64,000 nucleotides of DNA from Candidatus Aenigmatarchaeota archaeon (GCA_038742305.1 JAVYKI010000002.1:1013-65012), one strand, 5' to 3'; counted from the stretch's first letter, positions 1-45,289 are shown. A program made the numbers and translations. Notes: a model not told the origin generated them from the letters alone.

Positions 1-3000
1 GCCTTTTCTATTAATTTTTCAATTTCTTCTTTAGATACTTCTTCAACATATTTTGGCATTTTAATTTTTCTTTTTTCAAATTCTTTTCTTATTCTTGGTT
101 CTATTCCTTCTAAATAAATATCTACTATATCAAAAGCACCTTGCATTAGTTTGCTTTCTGCAAGCTTAAGCTCTGTTTCTATATCAAACACATCAACTTC
201 ATGCTTTTTCAAAACTTCTAAGTAGAACTTTAATTCTTCAATTTTTCTATCTCTTTTATCATATTCTTCTAGTTCTTTATCACTTAACCTTGTTACTTGA
301 TGCAAAATTGGCCTAAAGCTTACAAAGTATGGCCTTCCTCTATTGTATTCTGCATTTACTATCATTCCAGTACCAACATTAGCTTTTACAATAGAACTTA
401 CAAATTCTTCCCCATACTTCATTTTTATTCTTTCCAAATCTCCTTCATACCTTGTTCTCATTTGAATTTCAGTACCAATATTTGCTCTAATTTCCCCAAC
501 AAAATCACTCAAAACTTGGCTAATCAATATTAAGCCAATTCCCCACTTTCTAAATTCTCTTACTCCTCTTTCTAAAGCAATAAATCCTTTACCGCTTCCT
601 CCAAATTTTGGCAATAATCTATGGACTTCATCATAAACTATTAAAGCTCTCAATTCTTTGCTTTCTTCTAGTTGGGAATTAAATATTTCTTGAATTGTAT
701 TTGCAACGAAAATGTCAATTTCTTCTGGTTTTAGTTTATTAATTACAAAAATATAAATATTGCCTTTTGGATTTTCAATTATTTCTTTTAAGTTTATTTT
801 TTGATAGGGGCTTCTTATTATTTTTATTTTGCCACTAAATCCTCTTGCTTGTTTTTTACTCATTCCAAACTTTGTATATTCTTTTAGCATATAATTTTCT
901 TTACACTTTCTTAAAAATCCAGTCCATTGAGCTGTTGGGTCAAAAACAATAACATTTTTGCCTTTTAATAGCGCTTCTTCTGCAATTACCATAGCAGCAA
1001 TAGTTTTTCCGCTTCCTGTAGCTCCAGCAATCATTGTATGCATTTTTAAATCATCTAAATAAATAAAAGCTCTTCTAGCAGTTTCTGCAATATTTCCAAT
1101 AAATGCTGAATTTTCAGTAGCTTGAGGCAAAGTTGAAAAATCTATTGGAGTAGCAAACCTTTTCTGTTTTTCTTTTATTTTCAAATATCTTCTATAAAAT
1201 ATTATTGAAATTGCAGAGCTAGAAGCTATTAATATTGCAAATAACAATAATGTTTTTAGCTCTACTCCTAAAACTTTTCTTTCTAATAGCGGAATTTCTA
1301 CTGTTACAAAAGCACTAGCTACAGCTTCTTGCTTAATGTCTTCAGTTAAATAAGTCGCTACTGCCTTTACTAAATATCTTTTTTCTGGAATGTTTTCTGG
1401 AACTTTTAGTGAAACAATTTTTGATAGAGAAGTTTCTACTGCTAAACTTTCTTCTACTTTGCTTATTTCTATCATCGCATCACTATCTATTAAAGCTACA
1501 GTTAAATTAACATCAACTCTTTTAGTTTTACCTAAATTGTAAAGTATTACTTCAGCTCTTAAATAATCTCCAGGCTTAACTTTATCTTGAAGCAAAGATA
1601 TTTTTAGATCTAAAAGCTTTAATTCGGAAGGTAAAACTTTTATAGTTATTGGAATGTTAAAGCTTTCGTTTTCTACTATTATTTTTGCATATCCTCTATA
1701 TGTTCTAACTTCTGCATCTTTTGGAATTTCTATGAAAAGTTCAAAATAGTTTGCAGATTTTTTATTTAGCAATATTCTTTTATTATAAACTTTTATAAAT
1801 TGAGAAGCTTCTCCATATAGCATTATTTCTGCATAAACATCTTTCTGCTTGTTGTTTGCAATATTTATTTTCTTAATATCTTTTTCTCCTTGCTTTAATT
1901 CAACATATATTTCTTCAGTTTTAATTTCAACTTTTTCTGTTAATTCTTTTAATGCTTCTTGTATTTTAGAATAATCTATGCTAGGTCTTTCATAATAACT
2001 TGGTGCTGGAGCTGGTGGAACAGAAGTTACTGGACAAGCACCACAATCAATAGAACAGCTTCTACAATCTTCATACAAACTATCACAAATATTATCTCCA
2101 CAAACTACTGCTTCAGCCAACAAAAATGCTGAAGAGGAATTTAATTCTATGTAAGCTTTACTTCTTATTAAATCTATTGTTGGAATTAATTCTATCCAAT
2201 TGCTTTCACAACTTCTATTTTCCAAATTCCAATTACTACACTTGTAAATTCTTAAATTACTAACTTTTATTATTGAGCTAGAATATTCTGAAATATCAAG
2301 TTCAAGCCTTAATTTATCGTAAGTAAAGTTTGGTTCTATTGCAAAAGCAAAAAACCTATTTCTTATATTTGAAACGTTTGGAATTAGAACGTTGAATACA
2401 TCTACTTTAACAAAATTAATAGTAGTAGAATTAATGCTAGCATTGTAATAAATAGCATCATGGTTTTCAATTTTTACTTTTACATCATATTTTCCTGCAA
2501 AAATAGAAGCATTAATTGTTGCGTTTTCATCAGGAACTAATAAATATTCTTTTTCTTTGCTTATTGGATTTAGTAATTCTAAGCTCAACTTTATTAATTT
2601 TTCATCTACAGTTTTTGAAAATGAAATAATACTAACTTTTTCTCCAGCTCTTAATAACTTTTCTTCTATTTTTGAATTGTTGCTCCTATCTCTTGCAAAA
2701 ACTTTTATTGTATAGTCTCCTTTTTCTTCTGGAAATATAATTGATTTGTAAACATTATTTTCTAAATAATAGTTTAGATTAGTTTCTGTTCCGTTTGGAT
2801 AAATTATAAATAGATAAACTTCTTGTATTTCATCATTATCTTCAACTAAAAACTCAACAGTATTATTTTTATTTATTTCTAGTTCTTTTGTTAAAATTGT
2901 TATGTTTGGGCTAATATTATCTATTACTTTTATAATTTGAGGAATTACTTGATAAGAAGTAAAGTTTAAGTAAGAAGCTTCTACAATTAAATCGTTGTAA

Positions 3001-6000
3001 AGCTTTGTAATAGGAACTAAGCAAGAAATGTTGAAAGAATTTGTAATGTTTGTTATTAAGCATTCTTTATTGCTCAACAAAACTCTAAAGCTTATGTTTT
3101 CAGTTATTTCATTATTTTCAAAATAAGCTTTTAAGCTAATGTTTAAAATTTGGTTTGGATAAACTTCTATTAAGTTTATTGGCTCTAAAACTATTAATGT
3201 AAAGTTAACTATAGTAATGTTGAAAATTATAGTTTTTGAAATGTTTAAAGTTTGATTAAATAAAGTAATGTTTTCTAAATAATTTCCTTCTTTAGTTAAA
3301 TTGTAATAAACTGGAATGCTTATTTCTTGAAGCTTTTGCAAAAATACTTCGTTTTCTACTTTTAAGTTTTCTGAAGAATTAATTTTTAATAGTAAATCGT
3401 TGTTTGCAATACTTTTAATAGTTAAATTAGTTAAAAATCCATAACCTTTACCTTTTTGCAATTCAAAATATTCATTTACTAAAAAGCTATAATTGTTTAA
3501 AACATTCACTCTTAAATAAACATACTTTTCAATTCCTTCTGAACTGCTTAACCTTAAAGTTCCCGCATAGCTGTTTGCACTATATCCAAAAGGTATTGTT
3601 ACATTTATTTCTATTTCCTTGCTTTCTCCAGGCATTAAAGTTCCTATAAACGGATTAAATTCTGGGTTAAATTCATAGCATATGGTTCCTAAAATGCATT
3701 CAGCTCTTATATTGCTTACTGGGTCTGTACCAGTAGATTCTATTAAGAATCTAATAGTATATTTTTGGCCGTGATGAGCATCTATCGGCAATGGGTCGTA
3801 TACTTCTAATCTTGCTTCTTTTTTAATTCCTTCAGCAATTACATATGCACCGCTTTGCAAAGTAGTATTTGCTTCTACAAACTTGTAAAGCTTGTTAACT
3901 TTGCTTGGCAACTGTATCCAGTTGTAACAAGTTTTTTCGTAAAAACTATAATCAGAACAATAAATTATTTTTAAATTATCTTCTATTGCACCAACTAATT
4001 GAGCTTCTTCTGGCTTATAATAAATTCTTATAGTTGAGTTAAAGCTTAATGGTAATAAGATTCCAAATCCTCCTAATGGCTTGTAAAGGTTAACTTCCGT
4101 AGAATAAATTTTATCGTATTTAATGAAATCGTTTGGTAAATCTAAAGTGCTTAAGTTATATATTTTTATTTTTGCTTTATCACTTTCTATTAATAAATCA
4201 TAAATTCTTTGATGCAGGCTTAAGTTTTTATATCCGTAAATATTTTCAAACTGCAAAATTTGATTAGTACCATTTCTGTAAAAAGTAAAGTTTAAGTTAA
4301 TTGGCTCATGTAATGCATTAGTAATGTTTACCCAAACATACTTCAAAATAAATACTTCAAAGTAATCTTCTAAAATTAGTGTGTTATTTGTTGTATCGTT
4401 TATGTAAAATATTAAATCGTAATCGTTTGGTTCTAAACTTGTTAACGTAATTTCCCAAGTTAAATTGTTTTCTGTTGTTAATTCAAAATATTGGTTTAAT
4501 TGCTTTACATGCATTAAAACTTTGTCTATTGCAACGTTATCTGTTAAATTAAGCTTTATTGCTACATTGCTTGGATATTCTACGCTTGGAATTTCTTTTG
4601 AAATTAAAGTTGGTTTAGTTACGTCTTTATAGTATAAAGCATTTATTTCTGTTTTTTGAACTGAAACATCATAAGCAATATAATAAGCTGTTAGCGTTAA
4701 GTTGTGCCATCTCCCATCTTCTAATTTTGGCAAGCTACAATTAATTAACCAATAAGCATTTTCTACTCTTAAATTGTTTATTTTGCATTCTTTATTATCT
4801 ACAAAAACTGAAAAGTTCAAATCTTGAGTTATGTATTCATCAACTAATTTAAAGCTAGCATTTATTTCTATGCTTTCGTTTTCCAAAACATTTAAGTATG
4901 GATTAATTTTATTAATTGTTAGCTCTGCAGGATAAACTTCAATTTTAATTGGCAATTTTCTAGTTCCTAAAATATTTTCATAAATAGTTAAGTTACCTTC
5001 GTAAAAGCTTAAATAATTTGGTGCAGTAATATTTGCAAAAACTTGGAATGTTTCTGCTGGATTTAGTTGTTTATAAGTTTCTGTTAAGCTTAATATATCT
5101 GTAACATTTCCTTCTAATGATAAACTACTAAATGTTAATATTTTATTTCCAACATTAGTAATGTTTAGAATGTTTTTAGTATAGTTTTTGCCTGCAATTA
5201 ATTTAATTGTAATGTTTTCTTTATCTGTAACATATCTATAATCTGCTGGAACTATAACTTGTAGTTCAAAGCTTGTTGAATTATCTATGCTTGTAATGTT
5301 TATTATTGGATAATAGTATCCATCTGAAAATCCTAGAGGCAAGCTAATAGTTAAAGTAATATTTCTAATTTCTCCTGCTGGAAAACTAGAAATAAAGCTC
5401 GGACTAAAGCTAACATATTGACATAACGTTGATTCTCTTATGCATTCAAAGCTTATGTTTCTTACTTCTGCATTTCCTTTTGAATAAATTGTAAAATTAA
5501 CTGAATAGCTTGAATTATGGCTTACTACAATGCTTGTTGGATAGTAAGTCAAGTTTATAATTCTTGTTGGCAAAACATTAACTTCTATTGTTGATGCTGA
5601 ATATGCTGTGCTTGAGCTTCCATCTGCATTATTCCAATTTACATATGGCCTAAACGAATATGTGTTTGGTAAAGTTTTTTCTGGAATTGTTACGTTTAAT
5701 AAACAGTAAACTGTTGTATTAGGATTAATAGAAGAAATGTTGCAAGATGTTATTATCCAGCTTGTTCCTCCTGGAGGTAAGGAAGTTAAAGAAACATTGT
5801 ATGCAGTAACAGTATCGTTTAAATTAGATATAGAAAAGTTTATTGAAATAGTTTTCGAATCTTCTTGAGTTATTCCGCTAACTTCGAAATAGTTATTAAT
5901 TGGAGATAAGCTCAATTGAGCTTTTGCAAAAGCTGTAAAATTAAAAGTTAAAGTTCTGCATTTATTACCAGTATCGCAAGCTGTTAAATTAGCTAAATAT

Positions 6001-9000
6001 AAACCTTCTATTGGAGGATAATAATTACAAGTTATTGTTCCATAGGTTAATGAATTTCCTTGAGCGCAAATTAAGGAATCTAAAGTTGAATTCGGTAAAG
6101 TAACGTTTAAATAAACTATTGCTAATTGATTTTGATCGTCATAGAAATAAGCACTAAATGCTTGCAACTTATTAATTTCAATTTTTTCGCTATATGCTAA
6201 ATTGTTGATATACGGAGCTACATCAACTATATGCCAATAAACTAAAGTATAGTTTAAAGTTGGATTTGCAGAATTGTTGCTAATAGTTATGTTTAAACCT
6301 AAATCTACTGAAACATAATAACCATTTTGCCAAAGCTTTATCTGATTGCTAGATTGCTTATCAACAAACAAATATGTTGGGTTATACAATTCACCATTTA
6401 CAACTTTATTTGTTTCAAAAATTCCATTTTCTATTGGATTAGTTGCTGATAATGAAGTATAACTTATGCTAAAGTTTAGAGGAACATTTCCAATGTTTTT
6501 AATAGTTATATTTCCAAGCAGTCCAGCTTCATTTAATCCATAAGTTTCTTCTATTCGGTCAACTTTTGTCCCATTCCTTGAAAAAACTTCCATTATCCAT
6601 CTTGAATCTATTGGAACAGTAACATTTATTTCTATTTCTTTTCTCCTTTCATCTGGATAACCTAAATTGCTAGTTACATTTATTATTCCTCTGTATAATC
6701 CAGGATCTTGGCCTAACGGAATGTTTATTGTTAAAGTAAAACTTTGATAACTTCCATCATCTATGCTTTGCCAATAGTTTGGACTAATTGTTATCCATTC
6801 TTTCGGCAAGTTAATTTCTGTATAATTAACCCAAACATCTTGTAAAGGAGCATTTCCAGTATTGTTTATTGTTATAATTATTGAAAAGCTTTGATTGTGC
6901 TGAATAGTTTGAGTAATGTTATACGTGCTTAGTTCTATTTGAGGATTGCCAACAACTGTAACATATTGTTTATTAGAAAAAATTATTGAAGATTTTTGCT
7001 GCTTGTTATTTATCCAGCTAGCATTGTAAACTTGAGTGTAAGTTCTTGGTTGAGTGCCTGCGGGAATTGTTATGTTGAAAGTTATATTTATTTCACTTTC
7101 TGGCAAAATTTCTGGAATCGGAGTTGCATTAATTATTGAAAATGGACCTGAATATTTAGTTATAGCTAAATTATGAATTGTTCCTTTTCCAGTATTTTTA
7201 ACTGTTATGTTGAATTGCTCAATTTTATCTTCTGTTAAGCTAACATTAAAAACTGTTAAATTGTAAGCAATTATTTGAGCTGAAGTTCTTAAATCTTCTA
7301 AATAATAATTAAAGCTAAAGTTTGCTAATTCGTAAAATGCACTAGAATTAAATGCCGAAACATAAATTGTTTTATTTCCAGCTAATAATTCGCAATTAGT
7401 TCCTATTGTAAAGTTTTGCTCGCAATTATAGCCATAACAAGTTTTTGTAAGACCATCTATTGTAATATTTATTTGGCCTATAATTAATTCATTAGTATCT
7501 ATTCTAGTATAATTACCAACTTTTATAGTTGTAATAGCGCAGCTTGGATTGCTTACAAAATCTTGAATAACTTTATATTCTTTTGTTAAATTAGTTGGTG
7601 CCCAAATTTTTATGTTGCTTGAATTTTCTCCATAAATTCCTTGATAATTTGTTATATTAACTTTTACGTAATGAATTCCTAAGGATGGAGAATTAAACTT
7701 AATTAAATAATTTCCCTGTTCATCTGTATTATTTGAAATTAAAAGGTTATTATCGAAATAAAGCTCTGTTAAGTTATTTATTAAGGGTAAATTATCTGGC
7801 AATAAAATTGCTTTTCCATAGAAAGAAGTTGAATTGTAGATTTTGTTGGAAGGATTTAATTCTATAAATATTTTCTTAACTTCAAAATAATAACTTAAGT
7901 TAATATTATTAGCAATTATTCCATTATTTGAAATTCCGCTAATGCTTACATTTAAATTATGGCTTCCCAAGTTTAAAGGAGCATTAAAAGTTTCTGAAGT
8001 TCTCCATTTGTTTAAAGTAGAATCAAAAACTAATGTGTAATTATTTCCATTTATAGTTAAATTGAAATTTCCTTGATTAACATCAAAATAGCTTGAACCA
8101 TTAAATTCCCTTATTCTTAAAGTTAAATAATAAGTTTCATTTGGATTAAGAATGTTATCTTGTTGATTATGAGAATCTAATAAAGTTAATTGGTCAAAGG
8201 TTAAATTTCTTACTTCTATTAAAATTGAATTTTCTCCATAAATTCCTTGATAATTTGTTATGTTAACTTTTATTTTATGAATTCCTAAAATACTGGATGC
8301 ATTTATTTGGCAAGAATATTCTCCATAATTATTTGTTGCACAACTTCCATTAAACACATTATCTTGATAAACAGAAACATTTTCATTACTAACATTTAAA
8401 TTATCTGGCAATAAAATTGCTTTTCCATAAACATTTATTGCATCGTTTGGATTAGCAATTGTAGAATTTAAATTTATTGTTATATTAATGGATTTAACAA
8501 AAAATGTTATATTTTTTTCTAGCGATTCGTTAGAAACAGAATAGATTATAACTGTAAAGTTATATTCACCAATAGAAGGCACAGAAGTATTGAAGTAAAA
8601 ATATTCTCTTTTGTCTATAGAAACCAAAGGAGTTAAACTAGAGTTTTCCCAAGTTAAAGCATTACCGTTAACTCTGAAAGTTGCGTTTGCTGTTGTTTTA
8701 TTACTTCCTGAAATAAAATTAAAATCACTTGGCAAAATTATATCAAATCTCAAAATATTTTCTAAAATTGATTGTACTGAAAATGTGAAAAGTTGATTTT
8801 CCTTGTTTGCTTGAAGAATTTTAACTTGTGTTGGGGGATTAGATTCTACACTAACAACTCCTATATAAGCTTTTAAAGGTAAGTAATCAGTATTATTGCT
8901 ACAGCTTGTACAACTACTTTTACTAATTAAATCATATGGGATATCACAAATTCCATTATTGTCATTATCTTGACATGTTTTAGAATAATTCTCAAAAGTT

Positions 9001-11072
9001 CCTAAATAAACATTACCGCCAATATAATTACCTTTAATAATATTTTCTGTTTGAGTTAAAGTAGTATTCCAAAAGTTTTGATAAATTGGAGGAATAAAGT
9101 TAGCTATATATTTCGTTTTAAAGAAATTATTGTAAATTAAATTATTTGAAGATGAAGATAAACTAATTGAAAAGCTCATAAGCTTAAAGATATTTGAAAA
9201 AATGTTTGTTGAATTAGATGATATCAAATATATTCCAGTAGAAATTCCTCCTGAACCTCCCGAACCTAAAAAACCACCACTTCCTCCAGCTCCACCAGTT
9301 AAATTACTTATTGTATTCGAATAAATTGTGTTATTTTGAGAATTTTGAAGGTATATTCCAGCAGAAATTCCTCCTGAACCTCCAGAACCTTGATAACCAC
9401 CAGTTCCTCCACTCATTCCTTTAAGTCCGGAAATTGTTAAATTATAAATTATTGAATTAGTAACATTTATTAAAGCTATTCCAGCAGAAATTCCTCCTGA
9501 ACCTCCTGAACCTTGATAACCACCGATTTGAATACTTCCTCCAATTAATATTGGAGGATTAGTTGAATTTATAGTAAAGTTAGCTATTATTATATTAGAT
9601 TTATTGAAAAAGTATAAAATTGGATTATTATCAAAATAGTTTAATTTTGAAGTATCTACAATGTTGTTGTTTAATAAGGTTATTTCATTATTGTAAGAAT
9701 TGGAATCTGAAATCTATATTCCAGCAGAAATTCCTCCTGAACCTCCCGAACCAAAATCACCACCACTTCCTCCAGCTCCACCAGTTAAATTACTTATTGT
9801 ATTCGAATAAATTGTGTTATTTTGAGAATTTTGAAGGTATATTCCAGCAGAAATTCCTCCTGAACCTCCAGAACCTTGATAACCACCACTTCCTCCAGCT
9901 CCACCAGTTAAATTACTTATTGTATTATTTCTTAACAAGTTATAACTACTTTTTACAAGAATTCCAATAGCATTACCTCCATTAAAAGATCCAAAAATAT
10001 AATTTATAATGTTGTTTTCTATAATTGAAAAATTAGCTTGAGAATCTAAAAAAATACCAGTTTGCCATTTTCTAATTATACAATTTTTAATAGTAACATT
10101 TTCAGAATTAACATATATTCCATACAAATTTTTTGAAGAGATATCATTAAGAGCAAAATTACCTTCTATTATTTTTCCATTACAATCCAAAGTTACATTT
10201 TCAGAAGTTATATTAATTCCTGTAGTTAAATTCAAATTTAAAATATCTTTGCTTAAAGTGTAATAACCGGGTTTATTTATTAATAAAACATAAATTAAGC
10301 TTGAGTTCAATCCACTTATTCCATTAGAATCTGTTGTATTAATTGTTATATTATAAATTCCTAAATCTGAAGGAACAGAAAAAGTATAACTATAATTTCC
10401 ATTAGAATCAGTAGTTACATTACTTAAAAAGTTATCATCTAAGTAAATGCTTATATTTATGTTTGGAACTGTTAAATTATCTGGCAATAAAATTGCTTTT
10501 CCGTAAACATTTATTGCATCTCCTGGATTAACAATTGTAGAATTTAAATTAATTGTTACAAAAATTTTTCGAACAATAACAGTAACATTTAATTCTTCAA
10601 TGCTTCCATTTTCATACAAAGCTTTTAAAGTAAAGTTATAATATCCAACATCTGGAACAGAAGAATTAAACCAAAAATTTTTTGTTTCATTAGCTAAAAT
10701 TAGCCCAGAAAAATTTTGCCAAACTAAAGTATTTCCATAAACAAAAAAATCAGAAAAAGCATTTGTTCCGTTGCTATTAGAAATAAAACTAAAGCCTGAA
10801 GGTAAAGTAATATTAAGCTGAGTAATATTTAAAGAAAGAGTATTGTTAACAGTAAAGTTAAAAAGCTGATTAGGTAAATTTGCTTGAACTGCTTGAGGAT
10901 ATGTAATAGAAAAAGGAGGGGTATGAACTTTAACTTCTAAGCTGAAAACGTTTATAAAAAAAGCTAAAGTTAATATTAATGTAAACCATAATTTTTTACT
11001 ATTCATATCTTTCATTAATGTTTCGAAGAATAAAAGCAAAGCTTTTAAATAAGCAAAAAATTTAAAAAGCAA
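1..11072 (-). CDS. Giant secreted/surface protein, partial (runs off the left edge). It has an N-terminal signal peptide, a beta-helix region with Gly-rich GGAGGSGG..GSGGSGGISAGI repeats, many Asn/Thr-rich Ig-like modules, a TM helix and a C-terminal cytoplasmic HerA/FtsK-like P-loop ATPase domain. An in-frame TAG sits at 9714-9716.
   Basis: The ORF track gives 9714..11072 (452 aa, MLFKFF...LILTLAFFINVFS signal peptide). I translated the minus strand by hand below the TAG and it continues in the same frame (codon starts at positions congruent to 2 mod 3), with the same Gly-rich repeat motifs. No other M-initiated ORF is listed anywhere in 534..8610 on either strand, consistent with a single open frame to position 1. 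Near the 3' end: the hydrophobic segment LLLFAILIASSSAISIIF, then Walker A HTMIAGATGSGKT (~1000-1040), Walker B LIVYDEVHRL, and a tail ...EKRKIKMPKYVEEVSKEEIEKLIEKA leaving the window. NxT/S sequons are abundant. Confidence 0.6.
7560..7700 (-). repeat. A ~70-140 bp intragenic duplicate of 8190..8290 (ttttctccataaattccttgataatttgttat(a/g)ttaactttta...atgaattcctaa).
   Basis: By-eye alignment; both copies lie in the giant ORF frame. Confidence 0.5.
8395..8480 (-). repeat. Ig-like module repeat (YGKAILLPDN...). It is ~90% identical to 10472..10557, and a partial copy lies at ~7797-7830.
   Basis: Shared string ttatctggcaataaaattgcttttcc(a/g)taaacatttattgcatc...ttgtagaatttaaatt. Confidence 0.6.
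9229..9402 (-). repeat. Intragenic repeat copy 1 (~175 bp). It is near-identical to 9714..9887 and encodes Gly-rich beta-helix turns (GGAGGSGG..GSGGSGGISAGIY).
   Basis: I aligned the two copies by eye at an offset of 485 bp and found only a handful of mismatches. The 26-nt core ccagcagaaattcctcctgaacctcc recurs at ~9231, 9361, 9481, 9721 and 9841, a period of about 120-130 bp. Confidence 0.7.
9714..9887 (-). repeat. Intragenic repeat copy 2. Its first codon is the in-frame TAG, where copy 1 has TAT (Tyr).
   Basis: Direct comparison of 9229-9240 (aatatattccag) with 9711-9723 (atctatattccag). Confidence 0.7.
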
Positions 11073-42271: not shown

Positions 42272-43003
42272 TTATATAAACTTATTTAAATTCTTTTTTA
42301 TTTGATTAATTACTTTCTTTTCACTAACTTTATAAAAATTTGCAATTTCTTTAACAACTTCTATTACATCTTTGCTATTCATTTTTACATTTTTATATTC
42401 ATATGGACCATCGCTTTCAGTTAAAATATTTTTTAAATCTAAAATTTCTAAAGCTTTTCTATGATTTTCTTTAAATTTTAAAGTAATGTTGAAAGAGCAA
42501 AAGTATCCAACATTTTTAATTTCTTCTAAATAAGAAGAATATTGTACCCAATGAAAATTTGCTTTCTTTATATCAAATTTAAAAACTATATCTAAAACTT
42601 CTTTTATAGAATTTGCAGAGTGTAAATTTACAGGCAAATCATATTCTTTTGCAACTTTAATTTGCTCTACAAAAATTTCTTTTTGTTTTTCAATAGTTTT
42701 TGAAAAGAAAATTTTATCTAATCCGATTTCTCCAATTCCTATAGCATATTCAACTAATTTTTCAATTTCTTTTAAATCTTCTTTTTTTGCTAAATGAGCA
42801 TTCCAAGGATGAATTCCAACAAAAATTGGTAAATTAAATTTTTTATAAATTTCAATATTTTTTAAAGAAGTTTCCAAATTTTCGCTTACAGAAAAAATTA
42901 AAATTTTTTGATTTAAAAAATTTTCAATTTCTTTTTCAGAATATTCATAAGCATGACAATGAATATCGAAATATTTAAATAACTTGAGCTGTTCCTCCAG
43001 CAT
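42272..43003 (-). CDS. tatD: TatD-family metal-dependent hydrolase/DNase.
   Basis: FDIHCH...GIHPW...IGEIGLD...LHS...ESDGPY TatD motif series. Confidence 0.7.
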   Translation of the reverse strand: MLEEQLKLFKYFDIHCHAYEYSEKEIENFLNQKILIFSVSENLETSLKNIEIYKKFNLPIFVGIHPWNAHLAKKEDLKEIEKLVEYAIGIGEIGLDKIFFSKTIEKQKEIFVEQIKVAKEYDLPVNLHSANSIKEVLDIVFKFDIKKANFHWVQYSSYLEEIKNVGYFCSFNITLKFKENHRKALEILDLKNILTESDGPYEYKNVKMNSKDVIEVVKEIANFYKVSEKKVINQIKKNLNKFI

Positions 43004-44243
43004 GCCAACTTAATCTAGGCCTAATTACTGCAGTTAAAATTCTTTCAGAATTATCATCTAAAATTATTGCAGCTCCAGGAATTCTCGGCAATTTATTAAA
43101 TAATATTTCCAATTCTTCTTCTACGTAAGTTTGCATTATCGCTCTTAATGCTTTTAAATCTTCTCTAGCTGTTAATCTAAAAGAAATAACTATATCTGTT
43201 TGACTTAATAAATCTTGATGCAATTTATTTGGCATTTGAGTTATACAAATTAAATTTACTCCAGGCTCTCTTCCTTGCTTTGCAATTCTTAATATTGGAT
43301 CTAGTGCAATAGTTTGCTTATCGCTTGGAGCAAAATTTTGTGCTTCTTCAAAAAGCAGCCAAGTAATTGGAAAAAAATATTTTTGCTCTCTTCCTTCAAT
43401 TTTTGCAATTTCTTCTTCTTTTCTAGATAAAACTCTATTAAAATAAATAGTATTTGCAAGCCATGCAGCAATCATATTCATTATAGCAATATTTTTAACT
43501 CTTGATAAATCTATTACAGTAACTTTTCCAGGAACAACAAAATCTTCAATTCTATTTCCATATTTTTCAAAAATTTTCCAGGATTCTATTGTTTTAAAAG
43601 TGCTAACTAAAAACTTTTTAACTTCATCTTCTATTTCGTTATCATTTTTTATTTTCTCTATTAAATCGTTTAAATCATAAATTTCCTTTTCCTTTGCTAA
43701 TTCATTTAAATTTTTTTCTAATGCAATAGCTGCTTTGCTAGTTCTTTCTAATTCTAATGTCCTAATCCAATCTTCTGCAGTAAATATGTTAGTAGCTAAA
43801 GAAAAAGAATCGTCAACAGGAATTCCAGCATTAATATAATCTTCATACAAACCTTTTGGAACTAATACTCTAAAATATTCTTTAAAACCTCTTGGCTCTA
43901 AATTCCATTGTTGCAAAATTTGCTTCATTGCTAAGTTTGGATATTTCATGCTCCAATAAATTCCCATCGGGTCAACTATTACAAAAGCACTTTTATTCCT
44001 TATTTCATCTTCTAATTTGCAAAATTCTTCTATAATTACTCCAGCAGAAAAACTTTTTCCAGAGCCTCTTTTGCCACAAATTAAAACAACATGAGCTTTT
44101 ATAAAATCGAAATAAACTTTTGTAGTAAGCTGCCAATCATATTCACCAATTACTAATTGTCTTCCAATAAATCCAGCACCTTTAATTCCATATTTTTTTA
44201 AATCTTCTTTGCTTCTTCCAACAACATTTTCAATAATTTCCAT
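42975..44243 (-). CDS. HerA/FtsK-superfamily P-loop ATPase (DUF87-like).
   Basis: VVLICGKRGSGKSFSAGVIIEE Walker A; ITWLLFEEAQNFAP Walker B-like; overlaps the tatD start by 29 nt. Confidence 0.6.
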   Translation of the reverse strand: MEIIENVVGRSKEDLKKYGIKGAGFIGRQLVIGEYDWQLTTKVYFDFIKAHVVLICGKRGSGKSFSAGVIIEEFCKLEDEIRNKSAFVIVDPMGIYWSMKYPNLAMKQILQQWNLEPRGFKEYFRVLVPKGLYEDYINAGIPVDDSFSLATNIFTAEDWIRTLELERTSKAAIALEKNLNELAKEKEIYDLNDLIEKIKNDNEIEDEVKKFLVSTFKTIESWKIFEKYGNRIEDFVVPGKVTVIDLSRVKNIAIMNMIAAWLANTIYFNRVLSRKEEEIAKIEGREQKYFFPITWLLFEEAQNFAPSDKQTIALDPILRIAKQGREPGVNLICITQMPNKLHQDLLSQTDIVISFRLTAREDLKALRAIMQTYVEEELEILFNKLPRIPGAAIILDDNSERILTAVIRPRLSWHAGGTAQVI

Positions 44244-44287: not shown

Positions 44288-44569
44288 ATGAAATTTCCAA
44301 AAGAAGTAAGGATATATTGCCCATATTGCAATAAGCACACTTTGCATAGTGTTGAAATTGTTAAAAAAAGGCCAAGAAGAACATTAGCTCATGGGCAAAG
44401 AAGATTTCTTAGAAAAATGAAAGGTTATGGAAGCTTTCCAAAAGAAAATCCAAAAGGAAGAGAAAAGCCAACAAAAAAAGTTGATTTGAGGTTTAAATGT
44501 AAAGAATGTAATAAAAAGCATGTGCATGGAAAAGGATTTAGAGTTAAAAAGCTTGAATTCAAGCAATGA
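44288..44569 (+). CDS. rpl44e: 50S ribosomal protein L44e (eL42).
   Basis: [22 protein letters not shown]...KCKECNKKH. Confidence 0.85.
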
Positions 44570-44758: not shown

Positions 44759-45289
44759 GTGGAGGAAATAATAACTTTTGAAGAATTAAGAGAAGTTTTT
44801 ATTAGCGAAAAGAACGATTCTAAACTTACAAAAATAGATGAAAACTTTTTTTCTAAAGTAAAAAATTATTTAGAATTTAAAGAAAAAGCTTTTGAGCAAA
44901 CAAAAAACGAAAAGATATTGCAGGAATTGAAATCTGCTAAAAGAATGTTTGAAGAAATAATTTTAACAAGGCAGAAGAAAATAATAAATTCTGTTTTTGT
45001 TTTTCTTAAAACTGGAGCATTGCCAGAAAATATGCTAAATAGCGAAGAAGAAATATTTTTTAAAATAGTAGATTTATTAAAAGAGTATAGACAAAAATTA
45101 ATTTCTGGCTCTCAAGAAATAAAAAAGCAAGAAGTTAAAAAAGTTAAAATAAAAATGCTTTTTGATATTCCAGAATTTATTGGGCCAGATGGAAAAGAAT
45201 ATGGACCTTTTAAACAAGACGAAATTGTTGAAATAGAAGAAGAAGTAGCTAAATACTTAATTGAAAATGGATTTGCGAAAACTATTTAA
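44759..45289 (+). CDS. Hypothetical helical protein, possibly GINS-like; the family is uncertain.
   Basis: Size (~176 aa) and context after rpl44e-rps27e; no firm motif. Confidence 0.3.
   Translation: MEEIITFEELREVFISEKNDSKLTKIDENFFSKVKNYLEFKEKAFEQTKNEKILQELKSAKRMFEEIILTRQKKIINSVFVFLKTGALPENMLNSEEEIFFKIVDLLKEYRQKLISGSQEIKKQEVKKVKIKMLFDIPEFIGPDGKEYGPFKQDEIVEIEEEVAKYLIENGFAKTI

Follow-up and report, generated by a model that had tools for sequence, protein, structure and literature searches.

Does a HerA-like ATPase whose gene runs into that of a TatD-type nuclease also share a function with it? The question is raised by the genome of a Candidatus Aenigmatarchaeota archaeon, described as a tiny archaeal genome, of which a stretch of 64,000 nucleotides is analysed here (the window; G+C 22-33%, about 26% as one figure). 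A preliminary description of this DNA had reported a 422-residue DUF87/HerA-like ATPase that overlaps TatD by 29 nt, with glutamate dehydrogenase (GDH) coming next, and all these reading frames and Pfam matches are as described (Table 1). It had also proposed that the pair may be a unit of DNA-end processing or of defence. A machine of this kind would have been a further pairing of motor and nuclease in DNA repair or immunity; the evidence, instead, is that of local packing. The explanation that we consider probable, if by no means certain, is that ATPase and TatD are two separate, vertically inherited housekeeping genes, which became neighbours through the gene packing of one lineage.

Gene packing in the window

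Reading frames of 243-422 codons in DNA of 26% G+C, with profile scores as high as these, are far beyond chance. The genes for L44e and GINS51 diverge from that of the ATPase, and an intergenic region of 44 nt lies between the L44e side and the ATPase start. At the other end, the ATPase stop codon occupies 42975-42977 and TatD begins with an ATG at 43003. This ATG is the sole canonical in-frame start upstream of the HxH motif of TatD (H15, H17); the overlap of the two genes is, therefore, no artefact of start choice. GDH, in which both ELFV dehydrogenase domains are matched in Pfam, starts 4 nt after TatD on the same strand.

Table 1. Genes and motifs at the ATPase-TatD locus (positions counted from the first nucleotide of the window)
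Feature	Position	Strand	Basis or remark
Glutamate dehydrogenase (GDH), 361 aa	41182..42267	-	PF00208, E 1e-53; PF02812, E 6e-29
TatD/YcfH-family metal-dependent hydrolase (TIM-barrel 3'-5' exonuclease type), 243 aa	42272..43003	-	ORF; PF01026
HerA-clade ATPase without HAS-barrel, 422 aa	42975..44243	-	ORF; Pfam DUF87
Overlap of ATPase 3' end and TatD 5' end, 29 nt	42975..43003	-	
ATPase C-terminal tail, SWHAGGTAQVI	42978..43010	-	conserved yet disordered
ATPase Walker B, FEEAQNF	43332..43352	-	residues 298-304
ATPase Walker A (P-loop), GKRGSGKS	44052..44075	-	residues 57-64, with Lys63
Ribosomal protein L44e	44288-44569	+	PF00935, E 1.3e-24
GINS51	44759-45289	+	PF22090, E 1.2e-12

Close contact of genes is nothing special here. 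Nearly all same-strand neighbours in the window are at most 4 nt apart or overlap by 1-4 nt, regardless of function; pairs of unrelated function such as tRNase Z/NFACT and TatD/GDH are packed as tightly as others, and among the same-strand genes there are also overlaps as long as 17 and 20 nt. Tight packing is thus the general rule of this genome and no specific mark of coupling, and the ATPase/TatD overlap, for that reason, says little on function. In the window's clade ATPase and TatD, and in the window itself also GDH, are probably co-transcribed, since the genome packs same-strand genes end to end. In very compact genomes, we would caution, overlapping frames do not evidence shared function.

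The position of GDH directly behind TatD is an example of packing that joins unrelated functions. In the relatives L001, L004, L005 and L084 this position is not taken by GDH.

The ATPase and the nuclease

Within the FtsK/HerA superfamily, the ATPase is a member of the HerA clade that lacks the defining HAS-barrel. Its match to PF01935 (DUF87, "Helicase HerA, central domain") reaches 52 bits with a cut-off of 23.2 (E 1.3e-13), and together with this above-threshold profile it has the Walker A, Walker B and arginine-finger region of the superfamily. In NCBIfam and PADLOC it matches HerA models only, in NCBIfam far below the curated cut-offs: the HerA equivalogs NF040819 and NF040937 score 56 and 48 bits, respectively, while 970 and 800 would be required. 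In structural comparison (Foldseek, PDB) the top matches are archaeal HerA proteins, that of T. kodakarensis (9x1m, E 4.5e-21) and that of S. solfataricus (4d2i), with a probability of 1.00; next come HerA proteins of bacterial defence systems and the C-terminal domain of DndH, which has no HAS-barrel. The assignment as HerA-like, made in the preliminary description, can accordingly be kept at the level of the clade, on the strength of the DUF87 match and the likeness to archaeal HerA; the cut-offs of the equivalogs are not reached. A protein 100% identical to this ATPase is annotated as "ATP-binding protein" of Ca. Aenigmatarchaeota.

The catalytic core is intact. Both motifs that had been quoted for it are present (Table 1), and the catalytic motifs are conserved across 28 orthologues. 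In the alignment of these 28 sequences, G57, K58, R59, G60, G62 and K63 of the P-loop are invariant. Downstream of Walker B follow Arg325, in QGREPG, and Gln336, in ITQ; the region aligns with YEEAHKYAP...EGRKYGV...SQRP of a solved HerA (8xau). The glutamine that replaces the usual histidine of Walker B, to which the preliminary description had drawn attention, is indeed there. It is, however, a clade-specific substitution: most relatives have (D/E)EAH, and the variant marks the clade of the window, members without TatD included. By homology, the protein would be a hexameric ring that uses ATP, by means of Lys63, Glu299/Glu300 and Arg325, to travel along double-stranded DNA.

The AlphaFold2 (AF2) model, built on the alignment of 28 orthologues, is of good quality (pLDDT 89.8, pTM 0.90). 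It consists of a RecA-like core, into which four helices are inserted (residues 156-221), and a disordered tail. What precedes the P-loop strand (residues 52-56) is a short strand, a helix and one beta-hairpin, about 45 residues in all as compared with about 130 in HerA. A HAS-barrel is found neither by Pfam nor by NCBIfam nor in the model, and the search for one at the N-terminus, which the preliminary description had recommended, thus ended negatively. In line with this, the alignments of HerA profiles of Pfam and NCBIfam begin at profile position 130 or later (HerA_Thermprot from 130), i.e., past the HAS-barrel. The domain matters, as it is the dock of NurA: HerA from which it has been removed still forms hexamers, and NurA binding is lost (PMC3326311).

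The C-terminal tail is peculiar in being conserved yet disordered. All 28 aligned sequences have S412, H414, G416, T418 and A419, and pLDDT falls below 50 at residues 415-422. Most of the DNA for this tail also encodes, in another frame, the first nine residues of TatD.

The archaeal HerA of the HerA-NurA end-resection complex (4d2i, 9x1m) is thus the closest solved structure. Common to both are the RecA-like core with an inserted helical bundle, Walker A, a Walker B of the form (E/D)EA(H/Q), an arginine motif GR(K/E)xG and a TQ/SQ sensor motif; the TM-scores on the query are 0.58-0.67. The ATPase differs by its missing HAS-barrel, by a sequence identity of only 17-19% and by its company. No gene for NurA, Mre11 or Rad50 is found among the eight flanking genes scanned in the window. 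Nor is a NurA-like partner recurrent in the related loci, which bears out the earlier statement that NurA is lacking here, and in 80 loci from species-representative genomes no recurrent partner of the Mre11 or Rad50 kind is seen.

HAS-less relatives are known. The HerA/FtsK translocases of capture systems lack the HAS-barrel and occur as stand-alone proteins or as C-terminal domains (PMC12839542, PMC10853773). The C-terminal domain of DndH (7es4) is a confident structural match to the ATPase, with the highest target coverage and a TM-score on the target of 0.67. In the literature on HerA with TatD, with DPANN or with Aenigmarchaeota, we found no description of this ATPase family or of the pair. 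The orthologous group spans Aenigmatarchaeota and Nanohaloarchaeota; it is apparently undescribed and is best filed among the known HAS-less HerA/FtsK ATPases.

The second protein is, as had been supposed, a bona fide TatD-family hydrolase. It matches PF01026 over profile positions 1-251 of 253 (E 2.2e-44; 152 bits, cut-off 27). The ligand motifs HCH (15-17), GEIGLD (from 91), NLHS (126), NFHW (149) and ESDGPY (196) supply the complete set of metal ligands (HxH, E, H, H, D), i.e., H15, H17, E92, H128, H151 and D198. In these respects it resembles the TatD/YcfH exonucleases (E. coli TatD, YcfH and YjjV, human TATDN3), and its best solved relatives are YcfH-type proteins (2gzx, 6l25, which is YcfH, and 1j6o). 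It is unlike them in that it reaches 126 bits with the TIGR00010 subfamily model, below the cut-off of 206, and is for this reason a divergent archaeal member of the family. Most likely it acts as its family does in general, as a metal-dependent 3'-5' exonuclease.

Conservation of the adjacency

How far does the adjacency reach? Loci were sampled by homology to the ATPase, 80 from species-representative genomes and 80 from metagenomes, and searched for TatD; 69 and about 68 of them, respectively, were informative, i.e., had enough downstream sequence. Homologues of the ATPase of equal length and 50-86% identity are abundant and all labelled Aenigmatarchaeota. TatD lies downstream in four of the 69 informative species loci, the window counted, and the ATPases there are 74-76% identical to that of the window. 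In the metagenome set it is again four, out of about 68, with ATPases of 75-86% identity. A search from the side of TatD added the locus L084, with an ATPase of 86% identity, an overlap of 29 nt and L44e/GINS51 upstream as in the window.

The preliminary description had made its case depend on the pair being found in other genomes. There it is found, formally speaking, but in close relatives only (ATPases 74-86% identical); in the two sets TatD is absent beside ATPases of 68% identity or less, which make up about 130 more distant loci. Conservation thus amounts to synteny among close relatives. In a neighbour-joining tree the TatD-linked ATPases form one shallow clade. Nested within this clade is L007, which has an unrelated gene of 357 aa without Pfam match where TatD would be; the sister loci L006, L008 and L098 are devoid of TatD. 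The adjacency neither extends across distant genomes nor arose repeatedly. It has one recent origin and already one loss. The pair itself consists of two known families joined, and their adjacency is shallow synteny.

Within the clade, the pair is kept with some persistence. The overlap measures 29-32 nt in all relatives that have it, and the overlapping pair is present in no fewer than eight of the genomes or contigs sampled, despite differing flanks: upstream there is L44e-GINS or AsnRS, downstream GDH, NFACT or others. The persistence amid changed flanks may reflect selection or, likewise, the difficulty of separating overlapping genes.

The two proteins evolve differently. Between the window and L084 the ATPases are 86% and the TatD proteins 49% identical, and the two are therefore under very different constraint. 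TatD homologues about 45% identical are also found in Nanopusillus-type genomes, where they lie among genes for TFE, HIT, a RadA-like protein and the CCA-adding enzyme; in L085 and L086, which represent them, there is no DUF87 neighbour.

These data bear directly on the idea of a lineage-specific motor-nuclease module, in which the HAS-less hexamer would feed DNA ends to TatD, as a substitute for NurA, for resection or degradation, and the overlap would provide translational coupling and a fixed stoichiometry. That the overlap is kept in all pair-bearing members while their flanks are rearranged is what such a module would predict. HerA-type motors do pair with various nucleases, as the PDB matches HerA-NurA, Sir2-HerA and DUF4297-HerA illustrate, and in basal lineages the gene after the orthologous ATPase is that of Hef, itself a nuclease (see below). 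On the other hand, the adjacency is of single, shallow origin, was lost in L007 and is not seen with the distant orthologues; the HAS-barrel that would be the docking platform is missing; the sequence of TatD changes much more rapidly than that of the ATPase, and TatD is found elsewhere without it; and a metabolic enzyme, GDH, sits equally tight behind TatD. We regard the module as rather unlikely. Two separate genes that became immediate neighbours, with 29-32 nt in common, in one shallow lineage of Aenigmatarchaeota would account for the pair.

Neighbours of the ATPase elsewhere

What the ATPase does may rather be read from its recurrent neighbours. The gene for the small subunit of replication factor C (RFC), RFC-small, follows directly downstream on the same strand, with gaps of 27-76 nt, in six loci of the species set; it lies within 5 kb of the ATPase in 19 loci of this set and within 4 kb downstream in 15 metagenome loci. 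In many loci, an EF-Tu-like GTPase gene on the opposite strand is placed between ATPase and RFC-small, and co-transcription with RFC can, therefore, not be general. A full-length Hef, comprising a DEAD helicase, an ERCC4 nuclease and HhH, is encoded directly downstream in 7-8 loci of Nanohaloarchaeota and of deep branches of Aenigmatarchaeota. Upstream, a block of genes recurs that includes ribosomal and RNase P genes: Rpr2, S19e, L37ae, prefoldin, SepF, ProRS and FEN1. Even in the sister lineages L089 and L090, with 33% identity, ribosomal genes surround the ATPase, and an RFC gene lies at a distance of 2-3 kb. The two RFC genes, and Hef in basal lineages, are probably the ancestral neighbours of the ATPase.

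Downstream genes that appeared to be paralogous ATPases (about 320 and 390 aa) turned out to be the small and large subunits of RFC; single-linkage clustering had joined them to the family via shared inteins. Inteins concentrate in replication and repair proteins. In many relatives of the ATPase they are inserted at the P-loop lysine, in some also at Walker B.

Neighbours and inteins consistently point to a role in replication or repair, by association rather than by proof. Because of the RFC and Hef genes nearby, and of inteins in the catalytic motifs of relatives, we consider chromosome replication or repair, with no fixed nuclease partner, the most likely function of the ATPase, at about an even chance. 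Its remaining value is modest: it is a HAS-less relative of HerA, phylum-wide, intein-bearing and close to RFC and Hef genes, and one may reasonably propose it as a replication or repair factor of archaea in which the proteins of DNA maintenance are still little known.

A bolder version of this role can be formulated. The HAS-less ring could be a core motor of the replication fork or of repair, hitherto overlooked, in Aenigmatarchaeota, Nanohaloarchaeota and small archaea related to them. It would be tied by its genomic location to the clamp loader RFC and served by interchangeable nucleases, by Hef in basal lineages and by TatD, as a recruit, in the clade of the window, and so replace HerA-NurA/Mre11-Rad50. 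If so, the ATPase would stand in for the end processing by these complexes in reduced genomes. We hold this to be unlikely.

The Hef gene downstream in other genomes does encode a nuclease-bearing DNA enzyme, and a looser theme of a motor plus an exchangeable nuclease may be considered. In L017, a 34-nt overlap of the ATPase with an endonuclease related to Holliday-junction resolvases caught our attention, but it resulted from the first-start rule, which had selected a TTG; the likely ATG leaves an overlap of about 4 nt. The gene after this endonuclease looks Cas6-like by eye, and the endonuclease neighbour was not counted as support.

Not all neighbours belong to DNA metabolism. Pilin-like or surface-protein genes (cluster 9) flank the ATPase in several loci, and a FlaI/T2SSE-type ATPase and membrane proteins are encoded within 2-4 kb in the window and in L084. 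The ATPase might, then, work off chromosomal DNA, as a VirB4/CedB-like or protein-translocating motor of a surface, pilus or DNA-uptake apparatus, TatD being unrelated to it. However, its best structural matches are to HerA proper and not to VirB4 or TrwB, no conserved membrane partner was found in the loci surveyed, and the recurrent neighbours are RFC and Hef. Genes for surface proteins are numerous in these genomes, and the loci in which they adjoin the ATPase are scattered over the tree. A surface role is, in our opinion, very unlikely.

HerA-like proteins and TatD nucleases both occur in defence systems. An anti-phage or anti-plasmid pair, akin to the HerA-based systems or to Qat with its TatD nuclease QatD, would be in agreement with the PADLOC matches (HerA models up to E 4.6e-25 for the ATPase, QatD 7.4e-28 for TatD). 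It would also agree with the occurrence of relatives of the ATPase, 30-34% identical over the full length, in BREX-related capture-type loci (L087, L088). These contain PglZ, a BrxC-like giant ATPase and GNAT, with AddAB-like genes next to them; a Haloplanus plasmid carries one of the loci, and the other is part of a metagenome contig. BREX-related capture (BRC) systems are known to combine HerA/FtsK with PglZ, BrxC-like DUF6079, a STAND NTPase and DUF4007 (PMC12839542). Yet the NCBIfam defence equivalogs all remain far below their cut-offs, HerA_antiphage_2 with 47 bits (cut-off 850) and QatD with 101 (cut-off 230).

The surroundings are equally unfavourable to defence. PglZ, BrxC-like, STAND, Sir2, DUF4297 and NurA genes are not found near any Aenigmatarchaeota copy in the loci surveyed, and the capture partners PglZ, BrxC-like and GNAT are not found near any copy of Aenigmatarchaeota or Nanohaloarchaeota. 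The ATPase has no match in 50,697 phage records. Throughout the phylum it has been passed on vertically, and its synteny with ribosomal and replication genes is stable. The defence reading is extremely unlikely and already close to refuted. As a dedicated unit of either kind, for DNA-end processing or for defence, the HerA-TatD pair is not supported: it is confined to one shallow clade, lacks the HAS-barrel, has housekeeping surroundings and lies in no defence island. We see no indication that motor and nuclease form a dedicated complex or act against viruses.

The individual systems may be compared briefly. With the bacterial defence HerAs (Sir2-HerA/Nezha, DUF4297-HerA, TdpAB) the ATPase shares the fold, as seen in PADLOC and PDB matches; these proteins, however, have an N-terminal domain of their own that holds the effector, and an effector gene adjoins, both of which are absent here. 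The capture systems and DndFGH have in common with it a HerA/FtsK domain without HAS-barrel. They differ by their partners: PglZ, BrxC-like DUF6079, STAND NTPase, DUF4007, GNAT/TGT and DndF/G are all absent near the window gene and its orthologues, which form a clade separate from the capture-system paralogues and have housekeeping synteny. HerA-based defence and the BRC/Dnd capture systems were rejected as candidates for this reason, since only the paralogues reside in such loci.

Qat, suggested by the QatD profile matches, was rejected as well. This system is composed of QatA, QatB, a QueC-like QatC and the TatD nuclease QatD, and QatA is a KAP-family ATPase, not a HerA (PMC13434339). In the window the neighbours of the pair are L44e, GINS51 and GDH, QatB and the QueC-like QatC are absent, and the QatD score stays below its cut-off.

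The ATPase family extends beyond these lineages. A profile search of 1.8 billion representatives yielded 370 proteins at E <1e-30. Among them are long forms from Lokiarchaeota and Hadarchaeales, which are fused to DUF835, SAP, winged-helix or subtilase domains.

Clamp loader and Hef genes beside the ATPase

The linkage of the ATPase gene with those of the clamp loader is conserved. Across Aenigmatarchaeota, the genes for the small and large subunits of replication factor C (RFC) recur downstream of it, be it directly (loci L009, L010, L012, L014, L025 and L057) or nearby (L015, L029, L030, L041, L043, L044, L048, L051, L052, L060-L062 and 15 metagenome loci). RFC is also found 2-3 kb from the ATPase in L089 and L090, which represent two sister lineages at only 33% identity. 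We found no description of this linkage in the literature.

In Nanohaloarchaeota and in deep branches of Aenigmatarchaeota, a full-length Hef, built from a DEAD helicase, an ERCC4 nuclease and HhH, is encoded directly 3' of the ATPase (L068, L072, L073, L074, L075, L077, L078). In the nanohaloarchaeal loci (L073-L075, L078) the gene for a DUF460 protein comes next.

The ATPase tail and its overlap with TatD

The ATPase ends in an 11-residue tail (SWHAGGTAxxx) that hardly varies throughout the phylum. Despite this, the tail is predicted to be disordered; it resembles a docking peptide or a tail acting in trans. In the clade of the window, the same DNA also encodes the N-terminus of TatD.

Between the window and L084, its closest relative, the ATPases are 86% identical, the TatD proteins only 49%, whereas TatD identity amounts to 68-69% in more distant relatives with 74-76% identical ATPases. 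Judged from these sequence comparisons, the TatD of L084 either evolves very fast or has been replaced in place. Within the TatD-bearing clade, only L007 has no TatD; the gene in that position encodes a 357-aa protein without a Pfam match.

Coordinates of the features discussed (positions in the window or in the named locus)
Feature	Source	Position	Strand
ATPase-TatD pair	window	42272-44243	
ATPase-TatD pair	L084	3761-5705	
ATPase tail/TatD N-terminus	window	42978-43010	-
Gene in TatD position	L007	7337-8410	
Intein-bearing ATPase	L057	4477-7077	
Intein-bearing ATPase	L058	4555-7149	
RFC small subunit with intein	L057	7110-9335	
RFC small subunit with intein	L039	617-2938	-
RFC small subunit with intein	L012	1294-3024	
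PF10107 endonuclease region	L017	7230-8569	
Capture-like locus	L087, Haloplanus plasmid NZ_CP098519.1	109104-124255	
Giant open frame	window	1-9710	-
452-aa open frame	window	9714-11072	-

Inteins, fusions and defence-type loci

Inteins with LAGLIDADG homing endonuclease domains interrupt many ATPase orthologues (L057, L058, L065, L081 and, from the profile search, P0122, P0131 and about 25 further relatives). They are inserted exactly 3' of the Walker A lysine codon (GKRGSGK, intein C...HN, SYS); some orthologues contain a second one close to Walker B. Several of these genomes also have a large intein in the RFC small subunit, because of which RFC was wrongly merged with the ATPase in ORF clustering.

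Long relatives of 1200-1650 aa (P0225, P0236, P0240) are fused to DUF835, one DUF835-bearing protein to SAP DNA-binding domains as well; others carry a subtilase or winged-helix domain. The additional sequence outside the ATPase domain in P0166 (Lokiarchaeota, 925 aa) and P0184 (Hadarchaeales, 810 aa) was not identified by Pfam.

Paralogues with 30-34% identity occur in L087 and L088, loci resembling a published BREX-related capture system. Their partners are PglZ or a giant ATPase of the BrxC-like type, joined in L087 by a GNAT, and AddAB-like helicase-nuclease genes adjoin. In L017, the gene after the ATPase codes for an endonuclease with a membrane anchor, a relative of Holliday junction resolvases (PF10107). 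Next comes a protein that on visual inspection resembles Cas6 (GFGxxxxxGFG near the C-terminus); these genes may lie at the border of a CRISPR or defence region.

A giant open frame at the left end of the window

The left boundary of the window cuts through an open frame that spans at least 3237 codons. Its repeat-rich product, with GGxGGSGG and NxT motifs, is most likely a surface protein. The 452-aa frame just upstream shares these repeats, and the two might represent a single gene interrupted by a frameshift.
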